From: an uncultured delta proteobacterium
GTDB lineage: Bacteria > Desulfobacterota > RBG-13-43-22
Length of the DNA stretch: 32,000 nt
NCBI GenBank assembly: GCA_963743305.1
Contig: CAVUPH010000042.1
Coordinates: forward strand, 1-32,000
Reading direction: 5' to 3'
Positions 29,487 through 31,017 of the stretch are shown piece after piece; the stretch's first letter is position 1, and every line of letters starts with the position of its first letter. Below the pieces are notes generated by a model. The model saw nothing but the letters and a program-made list of their open reading frames with translations, did not search any database and was not told the origin of the DNA. The position numbers and the translations under genes were made by a program.

Positions 29487-29489
29487 TAA

Positions 29490-29621
29490 CGTTGATTTGG
29501 TTTATATGGTTTATTTCGTTATCTGGTTTAGCAAGAGAAGACCGTTGCCACCTATTAACCACTTCCGATATTAACCAAACCAACGTAATCAACGAAACAA
29601 ACCAAACAAACCAAATAAACG
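29490..29621. repeat. 132-bp AT-rich element with 31-nt imperfect inverted-repeat arms built from GGTTT/AAACC periodic repeats
   Basis: The left arm CGTTGATTTGGTTTATATGGTTTATTTCGTT (29490-29520) pairs at 27 of 31 positions with AACGAAACAAACCAAACAAACCAAATAAACG (29591-29621). The right arm ends 3 nt before the truA ATG. Confidence 0.7.
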
Positions 29622-29624
29622 AAG

Positions 29625-30368
29625 ATGACTTCCCGTACTATCCGCCTGCTCATCGCTTATGACGGTACCGATTTCCAGGGCTGGCAGCGCCAGCCCCAGG
29701 CCCCCACGATTCAGGGAACTCTGGAAGCCGTATTGCAAAAAATTACCCGGGAGCCAATCGCCTTGACGGGGGCCGGCCGAACGGACGCCGGAGTTCACGC
29801 TTGGGGTCAGGTGGCCCATTTTAAAACGCCGGCGGCCCTGACTCCGGAAAAATGGCAAAGCGCCCTTAACGCCCTTCTGCCTCCGGATATCCGCATTCGA
29901 TCGGTTCAGGAAACGCTGCCCGACTTTCATGCCCGATATGACAGCCGCCTGAAGACCTATGATTATTATCTCTTGAATGGAGGCTGGCCGGCGCCTTTTT
30001 ATCGGCGTTACAGTTGGTGGATCGGTCAACCGCTGGATTTTGGGCTGATGAGCCAGGGGCTTTTGGAGCTCAAAGGGGAGCATGATTTTTCAGCCTACCA
30101 GACTGCCGGGAGTGACGTGAAGCAGACGGTCAAGACCCTGTTTCAGGCCGATTTGATTCGTTTACGCCGGGGAGGGGTCCGTTTGCGATTCCAGGGCGAC
30201 GGGTTTCTCCGGCACATGGTCCGTAATCTGGTCGGGGCTTTGGTTCGTCTGGGGTTGAAAAAGATCACCCTGGGGCAGTGGCAGGATATTTTGGCTTCTC
30301 GGGACCGGTCCCAGGCCGGAGCCATGGCCCCGGCCCAGGGGCTGTTTCTACGAAAAGTGATCTATTGA
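29625..30368 (+). CDS. truA: tRNA pseudouridine(38-40) synthase TruA
   Basis: 247 aa: IRLLIAYDGTDFQGWQRQ...GAGRTDAGVHAWGQV (catalytic Asp motif). Confidence 0.93.
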   Translation: MTSRTIRLLIAYDGTDFQGWQRQPQAPTIQGTLEAVLQKITREPIALTGAGRTDAGVHAWGQVAHFKTPAALTPEKWQSALNALLPPDIRIRSVQETLPDFHARYDSRLKTYDYYLLNGGWPAPFYRRYSWWIGQPLDFGLMSQGLLELKGEHDFSAYQTAGSDVKQTVKTLFQADLIRLRRGGVRLRFQGDGFLRHMVRNLVGALVRLGLKKITLGQWQDILASRDRSQAGAMAPAQGLFLRKVIY

Positions 30369-30369
30369 T

Positions 30370-30688
30370 GGTGGTTCGCCCTTTTGGGTGGGTACCCCCT
30401 AGATCCGGTATGGCCGTGGGGTCTCGGCGAAAGGGTTTTCCAAAGGTACTCCGGACTTCGAACCCGGGCCTAAATTACTAACTTTATTTAAAGCAGGCCC
30501 ATACTCCGAGTATTTTGATGTCTCCCCGGCCGGCCCTGCCTTCTGGAAAATTTGATAGTAAGAGGGCCGGGTTAGAACTTAAAAAGCAATATGGAAAACC
30601 CTTTCGCCGAGACCCCACGGCCAGGGAGGCCCGATTTCAGGTCAATCTACCCTATATTGCAGCCACCCACCCAAAAGGGCGAAGCGTC
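30370..30688. mobile_element. 319-bp non-coding MITE-like element with nested perfect inverted repeats, flanked by an 8-bp direct repeat CTATTGAT
   Basis: Direct repeats lie at 30362-30369 and 30689-30696. The outer IR is 19 bp perfect (30375-30393 / 30665-30683). The inner IR is 32 bp perfect (30411-30442 / 30592-30623). No credible ORF lies inside. Confidence 0.7.
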
Positions 30689-30695
30689 CTATTGA

Positions 30696-30848
30696 TTAGG
30701 CTTTATTGGTTTGGACTGTTTCTTCCACAGTCCGGTAAATGCCCCGGAAGGCTTCATCGAAGCTGCTGATGGCCAGCCGCCCGATTTCAATGTATTTAAT
30801 GACGATTTCCTTGGTCACTTTCAGGATCAATTCCTCTTCCGGTTTCAT
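30696..30848 (-). CDS. Unannotated 50-aa ORF convergent with truA
   Basis: SD GGAGG lies 9 nt before the ATG at 30848. Peptide: MKPEEELILKVTKEIVIKYIEIGRLAISSFDEAFRGIYRTVEETVQTNKA. Under 60 aa, hence absent from the track. Confidence 0.5.
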   Translation of the reverse strand: MKPEEELILKVTKEIVIKYIEIGRLAISSFDEAFRGIYRTVEETVQTNKA

Positions 30849-30879
30849 AGTCCAAAACCTCCGCAGAAGGTAATAAGCT

Positions 30880-30908
30880 AGCCAAAAATATTTGAAATAT
30901 TTTTGGCT
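30880..30908. promoter_or_regulatory. Perfect 29-bp palindrome (14-1-14) upstream of the 50-aa ORF
   Basis: AGCCAAAAATATTT-G-AAATATTTTTGGCT, 32 nt upstream of the ATG at 30848, in the divergent region shared with mutL. Confidence 0.5.
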
Positions 30909-30962
30909 GTAATAAAATCCATTTTAATAGACAAATTCTCAGAACAATGGATGTAAGAAGCT

Positions 30963-31017
30963 AAAGGCCTCTACTTCAGGAAGAAGGCGTTTTCAGGAAG
31001 CAGAGGCCTTTTATTTT
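30963..31017 (+). terminator. Orphan terminator-like hairpin in the mutL upstream region
   Basis: AAAGGCCTCT (30963-30972) pairs with AGAGGCCTTT (31002-31011) and is followed by TATTTT. The 29-nt loop holds the direct repeat TTCAGGAAG twice. No + strand gene lies upstream. Confidence 0.3.

Follow-up and report, generated by a model that had tools for sequence, protein, structure and literature searches.

A 319-bp element lies at positions 30370–30688 of a 32,000-nt stretch of DNA (contig CAVUPH010000042.1 of assembly GCA_963743305.1, from an uncultured deltaproteobacterium of the GTDB lineage RBG-13-43-22; hereafter the window), between truA and a convergent 50-aa open reading frame (ORF). 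We hold with high confidence that this element is one copy of a family of non-autonomous transposable elements of the miniature inverted-repeat type (MITEs) which inserted with an 8-bp target-site duplication (TSD), is built from nested inverted-repeat arms and carries interiors that invert in place. A non-autonomous transposable element with an 8-bp duplication had been proposed from the letters of the window (the original prediction), and comparison with other genomes bore this proposal out: the element is multi-copy, duplications occur family-wide, and relatives supply both empty sites and lineage-specific insertions.

Copies, target duplications and empty sites

The genome from which the window derives (G000; 4.9 Mb in 43 contigs, 54.6% GC) is a metagenome-assembled genome (MAG), 90% complete with 5.7% contamination. 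We compared it with three other species of the genus, the closest of which is G002 (truA 97% identical to that of the window, against 90% in G001 and 87% in G003), and with genomes of other genera, among them G007. A BLASTN search of G000 for further copies, one of the checks proposed for the original prediction, returned 107 loci on most contigs, ∼45 of them near full length and ∼60 shorter. Full-length copies span 302–335 bp and, when aligned with their flanks, give consensus ends of 5'-GACGC TTCGCCCTTTTGGGTGGGTA ... CCACCCACCCAAAAGGGCGAA CAACC-3'. Similarity in this family alignment ends exactly at 30370 and 30688 of the window, the same 319-bp extent that had been claimed. The terminal inverted repeats (TIRs), ∼24 nt including the tips (GACGC/GGTTG + TTCGCCCTTTTGGGTGGGT), are conserved in every one of the 42 copies aligned.

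Each of the congeners G001–G003 holds 30–60 family matches, and the element family is present, with weaker matches, in two further genera of the same taxonomic family. Neither 14 genomes from a fourth genus nor 20 further families within the phylum yielded it. On this sampling, the element family is limited to one family-level lineage of uncultured deltaproteobacteria. Searches of plasmid and phage collections also gave no match to the element; judged by these collections and by Rfam, none of which holds a match, the family is previously undescribed.

To score target duplications, we compared the flanking octamers of 52 TIR-bounded copies. The two octamers were identical at all eight positions in 17 copies and at seven of eight in a further 10 (27/52 in total); control octamers taken one step further out were identical at no more than four of eight positions. 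The targets, taken as the octamer plus two bases on each side (12 bp), are 81–100% A/T, compared with a genome of 54.6% GC, and one half of the target is A-rich while the other is T-rich. At the window copy, the octamer pair that had been claimed at 30362–30369 and 30689–30696 is present, both members reading CTATTGAT.

In G002 the truA locus also holds the element, its tips unchanged and its duplication reading CTATTGAT/CTATTAAT. The proposed search for an empty site in relatives succeeded in the other two congeners: G001 and G003 carry a single TTATTGAC in place of the two octamers of the window, and the gap between truA and the small ORF is 22 nt in G001 and 5 nt in G003. The comparison shows that the insertion at truA occurred after the split from G001 and G003. 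Additionally, the flanks of 25 G000 insertions were joined with one octamer copy each and searched in G002. At least 14 of these reconstructed sites are continuous in G002 over ∼300 nt at 81–96% identity and hence empty, and three of the 25 are split by ∼320 nt and hence occupied. By this comparison, insertion is shown to have continued after the split from the closest congener. Most insertions post-date the separation of G000 and G002, whose flanks are ∼95% identical, and the family was therefore recently active. The scenario named as fatal to the original prediction, a single-copy sequence in conserved synteny everywhere and with no empty site, is excluded.

In shorter forms of the element (47–140 nt), the outer arms are retained while more or less of the hairpin interior is missing. 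One 103-nt deletion form was found at two different sites, with a perfect duplication at one of them. Because forms consisting only of outer arms sit at different sites, the outer ends seem sufficient for movement. Breakpoints within the hairpin are many and differ among the short forms, which look like deletions of a palindrome. We also considered a nested origin, in which the inner module would have inserted into a 100-nt outer element, and do not find it supported: the inner arms were seen to have no flanking duplication, and the varied breakpoints of the short forms fit deletions. Outside the genus, a G007 copy is 73% identical, its arms are compensated and its 8-bp TSD is perfect.

Nested arms, inversions and concerted changes

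The element is a nested palindrome: arms of 19 bp on the outside enclose arms of 32 bp, which in turn enclose a core that is itself partly palindromic. Both perfect inverted repeats described in the original prediction were recovered, as were its two internal hairpins. The parts of the window copy are as follows.

30362–30369: left copy of the target-site duplication, CTATTGAT, containing the truA stop codon TGA
30370–30374: terminal pentamer GGTGG, the complement of the family right tip CAACC/CCACC; tip orientation reversed relative to the interior
30375–30393: left arm of the outer inverted repeat, TTCGCCCTTTTGGGTGGGT (the family TIR), 19 bp, perfect
30394–30410: short asymmetric spacer between outer and inner repeats, 17 nt
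30411–30442: left arm of the inner inverted repeat, 32 nt, perfect, with a hypervariable but always paired 4-nt patch (here GTGG)
30443–30591: core with conserved blocks and small hairpins, 149 nt, between the inner arms
30501–30513: small core hairpin ATACTC-C-GAGTAT
30530–30537 and 30563–30570: small core hairpin CCGGCCCT/AGGGCCGG
30592–30623: right arm of the inner inverted repeat, 32 nt, perfect
30624–30664: long asymmetric spacer, 41 nt
30665–30683: right arm of the outer inverted repeat, 19 bp, perfect
30684–30688: terminal pentamer GCGTC, the complement of the family left tip GACGC
30689–30696: right copy of the target-site duplication, CTATTGAT; its last T starts the complement of the small-ORF stop codon TAA

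Only short, unconserved ORFs overlap the element. Folding of the 335-nt stretch gave predicted energies of −160 and −173.5 kcal/mol on the two strands (z = −8.8 and −9.8 relative to shuffles), so that the folding check proposed for the original prediction found a region far more stable than shuffled sequence on both strands.

The canonical form has its short spacer (17 nt) adjoining the GACGC tip and its long spacer (41 nt) adjoining CAACC. The tips of the window copy (GGTGG ... GCGTC) are swapped relative to this arrangement, while its ortholog in G002 has the canonical orientation. The two orthologs are identical at 203 of 319 positions as they stand, and at 295 of 319 once the interior between the 19-bp outer arms is re-inverted. 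Because the orthologs match only after this re-inversion, the alignment shows that the interior of the window copy was flipped in place in the G000 lineage. In four genomes together, we scored the orientation of 56 full copies: 44 are canonical, six have the core flipped, three have the interior flipped, one has both flipped and two could not be scored. The 149-bp core is thus flipped between the 32-bp inner repeats in ∼12% of copies.

To analyze pairing within the arms, we used an alignment of 42 canonical copies (A1). Across the two stems, 98.4% of cells are paired, and two-sided changes occur in 67 cells, compared with 14.9±4.6 in shuffles (none of 500 as high) and 3–9 in slid controls. Columns 54/294 of the inner stem are CG in 19 copies, UA in 18 and AU in five, and the adjacent columns 55/293 are CG in 21, GC in 15 and UA in six; no copy is broken at either pair. 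The 4-nt patch of the inner arm takes at least nine forms, each of them perfectly complementary. By itself, such covariation would be taken to prove that an RNA helix is conserved.

Single-sided mismatches, in contrast to what a transcribed strand would leave, show no strand asymmetry (18 G·U versus 13 A·C). Within one ortholog pair (L004 in G000 and L037 in G002) there are nine differences, two of which are the two sides of a single stem pair (C:G to T:A), an event with an estimated chance of ∼0.01. Searches for RNA signals were negative. No Rfam 15 family reached its gathering score over the whole window, and a search of the region at E≤10 gave no match to the element, the best E-value (0.25) lying outside it. 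A T-arm-like stretch of the core, CCGGA-CTTCGAA-TCCGG, had raised the idea of a tRNA or tmRNA; ARAGORN found neither, and the hairpin is not conserved in G007. A consensus scan of the element for promoters and terminators found none, with no stem followed by a T-run on either strand. Because there is no G·U/A·C bias, the core occurs in both orientations, RNA, promoter and terminator signals are lacking and L004 and L037 differ by a concerted change, the stem covariation points to homogenization of the arms at the DNA level, not to selection on RNA.

The inversions and the concerted arm changes may be two outcomes of one DNA-level process, either recombination between arms or template switching during replication. 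Polymerase template switching between inverted repeats reportedly leads to both arm homogenization and spacer inversion (PMC8604942) and has been described in E. coli (PMC7202029). Reciprocal recombination of the arms with heteroduplex repair would give the same outcomes, and the two are indistinguishable with these data.

Four copies (L102:3613-3942, L086:7012-7343, L103:5312-5642 and L017:1496-1820) carry an extra G+C-rich mini-hairpin of 12–18 nt (GGCCCGCC-TTAG-GCGGGC) before the right inner arm (columns 240–270 of A1), and L019 and L020 have a 9-nt duplication within the left arm. Two G000 copies, C3:7716-8035 and C16:41280-41599, are almost the same in sequence, and their flanks are identical to left and right; this pair is probably a duplicated region or a case of redundant MAG contigs.

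The parent transposase and rival explanations

The original prediction held that the parent element could not be named, and this remains so, as no transposase with matching ends was found. In G000, no TIR pair occurs at the spacing of an insertion sequence (IS) with up to 4 mismatches allowed, inverted pairs being only 37–325 bp or >8 kb apart; no TIR pair at such spacing occurs in G002 with up to 2 mismatches. A Pfam search of five genomes for ISL3, IS1595 and IS256 found transposases in the congeners, with ends not matching those of the MITE. No intact ISL3, IS1595 or IS256 transposase was found in the G000 assembly, nor any hit to PF01610 (ISL3). We also scanned metagenome contigs for the TIR, which matched 108 stretches (L116, L172 and L188 being one locus in three samples), and found no cognate transposase among the stretches returned. 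Every unpaired metagenome TIR examined that left room for a gene is a truncated remnant beside ordinary host genes, which we read by eye from their translations as histidine kinase, sigma-54 regulator, dapF/dapB, NifU-like and cytochrome genes.

A DDE transposase supplied in trans would make cuts staggered by 8 bp and so move the element, with an ISL3-like enzyme as our best guess. The ISL3 family makes 8-bp duplications at A/T-rich targets and has inverted repeats starting with GG. The MITE shares the 8-bp duplication and a roughly A-then-T, A/T-rich target, and one of its ends, starting GGTTGTTCG, resembles GGTTCTTTCG of the G002 ISL3 copy. This copy starts GGTTCTTTCG, versus GGTTGTTCGC for one MITE end, and its ends read GGTTCTTTCGTGAAAAAG..., versus GGTTGTTCGCCCTTTTGG... 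for the MITE, only ∼10 nt being alike. The resemblance of the ends stops after those ∼10 nt; the second MITE tip is GACGC, and the G000 assembly has no ISL3 transposase. Because IS1595, IS256, IS66 and IS6 likewise make 8-bp duplications, an ISL3-like parent is an unproven lead.

Four points weigh against a non-autonomous MITE as the full account. No parent with matching ends was found in G000, G002 or the metagenome stretches returned (the assemblies are MAGs). The family seems recently active, yet the 90%-complete G000 offers no candidate transposase. Transposition is inferred from comparative genomics. Lastly, the core and inner arms are far more conserved than the interior of a MITE needs to be, which a simple parasite model leaves unexplained: the core blocks and the arm sequence outside the 4-nt patch are conserved even in the 73%-identity G007 copy, and the blocks are common to three genera. 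It points to a constraint of some kind on propagating lineages. One reading, which we consider doubtful, makes the folded interior (the 32-bp hairpin and the 149-nt core) a functional module, whether a cruciform or hairpin recognized by the transposase or a host factor, a stem that bears specificity, or a structured RNA spread by a transposon. It is suggested by the core blocks conserved in three genera, by arms that are fixed except for an always-paired patch, and by the dominance of full-length copies, which vastly outnumber the outer-arm-only forms although these can also move. If this reading were true, the family would be moved by a type of transposase not yet linked to such substrates, and interest in the conserved interior would rise.

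A related possibility is that the element is a MITE which has since been exapted locally, its stems acting on the transcripts of truA and the 50-aa ORF as a bidirectional barrier to transcription, a stabilizer of 3' ends or a target of RNase III. The location exactly between two convergent stop codons, the very stable fold on both strands and the retention of the insertion in two species (G000 and G002) are consistent with such a role, and MITEs in 3' untranslated regions can affect transcripts (PMC10969869). However, the scan found no stem with a T-run on either strand, G001 and G003 keep the same gene pair with no element, and the interior has been inverted with no visible consequence; we therefore regard exaptation as unlikely, if less so than the remaining alternatives. 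A multi-copy family of native structured RNA genes, in which selection for the RNA fold produced the covariation, would explain the strong covariation of the 32-bp stem, the conservation of core blocks across three genera and the folding z-scores near −9. This is very improbable given the 8-bp duplications and empty sites, which show insertion. Additionally, there is no Rfam family or promoter/terminator consensus, no G·U versus A·C asymmetry to mark a transcribed strand, and the core is found either way round with respect to arms and tips, which a directional RNA gene would not tolerate; perfect 32-bp duplexes are also atypical of functional bacterial RNAs.

That both nested segments occur in both orientations, and that one flip separates orthologous copies, would also be expected of programmed DNA inversion (an inverton), with the repeats as sites of a dedicated invertase and the flips as a phase-variable switch; the conserved arms around a variable 4-bp patch even loosely resemble a recombinase site with its spacer. 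Flipped states, however, are a minority (10/56) and look fixed at each locus, no internal promoter consensus is present, and a regulon of ∼45 copies scattered over arbitrary contexts would be a poor one. Both the flips and the homogenization are accounted for by template switching or arm recombination, with no dedicated enzyme (PMC8604942), and we give an inverton very little credence. Lowest in our estimation, and hardly credible, is the reading in which an HUH/Y1 enzyme recognizes the hairpins and mobilizes the palindrome in single-stranded form, as with elements of the REP/RAYT or IS200/IS605 PATE type. The hairpin-rich architecture and a variable patch at which pairing is kept rather than sequence speak for it. 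Systems of the IS200/IS605 type make no target duplication and insert next to specific tetra- or pentanucleotides. The copies studied here are instead flanked by 8-bp duplications of varied A/T-rich octamers, which contradicts this reading, and short forms that lack the inner hairpin still lie at separate sites.

Flanking genes, neighboring repeats and related systems

The two genes that flank the insertion are listed below.

29625–30368, + strand: truA (tRNA pseudouridine synthase; Pfam PseudoU_synth_1, PF01416, E=4e-41)
30696–30848, − strand: 50-aa ORF (MKPEEELILKVTKEIVIKYIEIGRLAISSFDEAFRGIYRTVEETVQTNKA), convergent with truA; conserved, no Pfam match

The original prediction placed the TGA of truA inside the first octamer and the complement of the small-ORF TAA from the last base of the second, and both placements are correct. 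Both stop codons survive in the duplicated octamer, which leaves truA and the small gene intact; the C-terminus of TruA (...KVIY*) is identical to that at the empty sites of the congeners. The insertion at this locus was probably neutral, and a read-through transcript, if any, would carry a long hairpin. The 50-aa protein differs at only 2–3 of 50 residues in three congeners while the DNA is 84–97% identical, and on this conservation the ORF is a real, unannotated small protein gene under strong purifying selection in the genus.

Other repeats are found nearby. A second, unrelated family of short repeats (∼87–90 nt, with the internal palindrome AAAAATATTTGAAATATTTTT) is represented at 30878–30967, just upstream of the 50-aa ORF, and has 74 BLAST matches in G000 and many in G001–G003. 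G002 and G003 lack the segment at the corresponding position, and it looks like another small mobile insertion. The spacer between argC and truA (29487–29624, with GGTTT/AAACC units) has only short partial matches of 30–50 nt elsewhere in the genome and, by this search and unlike the MITE, is no dispersed family. A third repeat family of ∼150 nt was noticed as the flank of one MITE copy (C2:59943-60100 in G000, on the right of the copy at C2:59627-59942), and has at least 20 copies in G002 at 79–88% identity.

Prokaryotic MITEs are <500 bp, have TIRs and flanking direct repeats, target A/T-rich intergenic sequence and occur as size variants (PMC10969869). The present family shows every one of these structural features and adds comparative proof of insertion; the cognate IS alone is missing. 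As in MITEs such as Chunjie of Geobacter uraniireducens and QMITE1/2 of Coxiella burnetii (PMC10969869), the elements are non-coding, shorter than 500 bp and bounded by TIRs and direct repeats at A/T-rich, mostly intergenic targets, with tens of copies, many truncated size variants and a stable predicted stem-loop. They differ from known MITEs in their three-level nested palindrome with a perfect 32-bp internal repeat, in their inverted interiors and in that no cognate IS was found.

Transcripts of the Correia (NEMIS) elements of Neisseria and of the ERIC elements of enterobacteria fold into long hairpins that RNase III can process. Both are, like the present family, abundant, palindromic and MITE-like repeats next to genes; however, Correia elements duplicate TA and ERIC elements have no clear duplication, compared with 8 bp here, and the sequences are unrelated. 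The variable 8-bp duplications likewise set the family apart from the REP/RAYT and IS200/IS605 types. The closest parallel to the internal changes is quasipalindrome template-switch mutagenesis together with small inversions flanked by inverted repeats (PMC8604942, PMC7202029 and PMC5941160), which share the concerted two-sided arm changes and the spacer inversion, seen here between orthologs. Most descriptions of that process concern short repeats within genes or promoters, whereas it would act here at two nested levels and in a mobile family of 50 copies. A flipping nested palindrome with concerted arm changes is noteworthy, yet known DNA mechanisms account for it.

These repeats also bear on annotation. 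On one metagenome contig (L194), an ORF at +969 of the inward stretch, otherwise dapB-like by eye, reads through a MITE copy at its start (peptide ...GKPFRRDPASIPDRGGTHPKGRNVK...); automated gene calls may run on into repeats of this kind. Annotators are further warned that covariation alone is no ground for calling such repeats RNAs, a caution that extends to covariation-based RNA discovery. As a clean natural example, the family shows, on two levels nested in one element, inverted-repeat arms whose complementarity is kept up by concerted change and spacers that invert in place. It accounts for ∼100 hairpin-rich intergenic repeats in these genomes, supplies insertion-polymorphism markers between closely related MAGs, and documents a recently active MITE family in an uncultured deltaproteobacterial lineage of sediment or soil.

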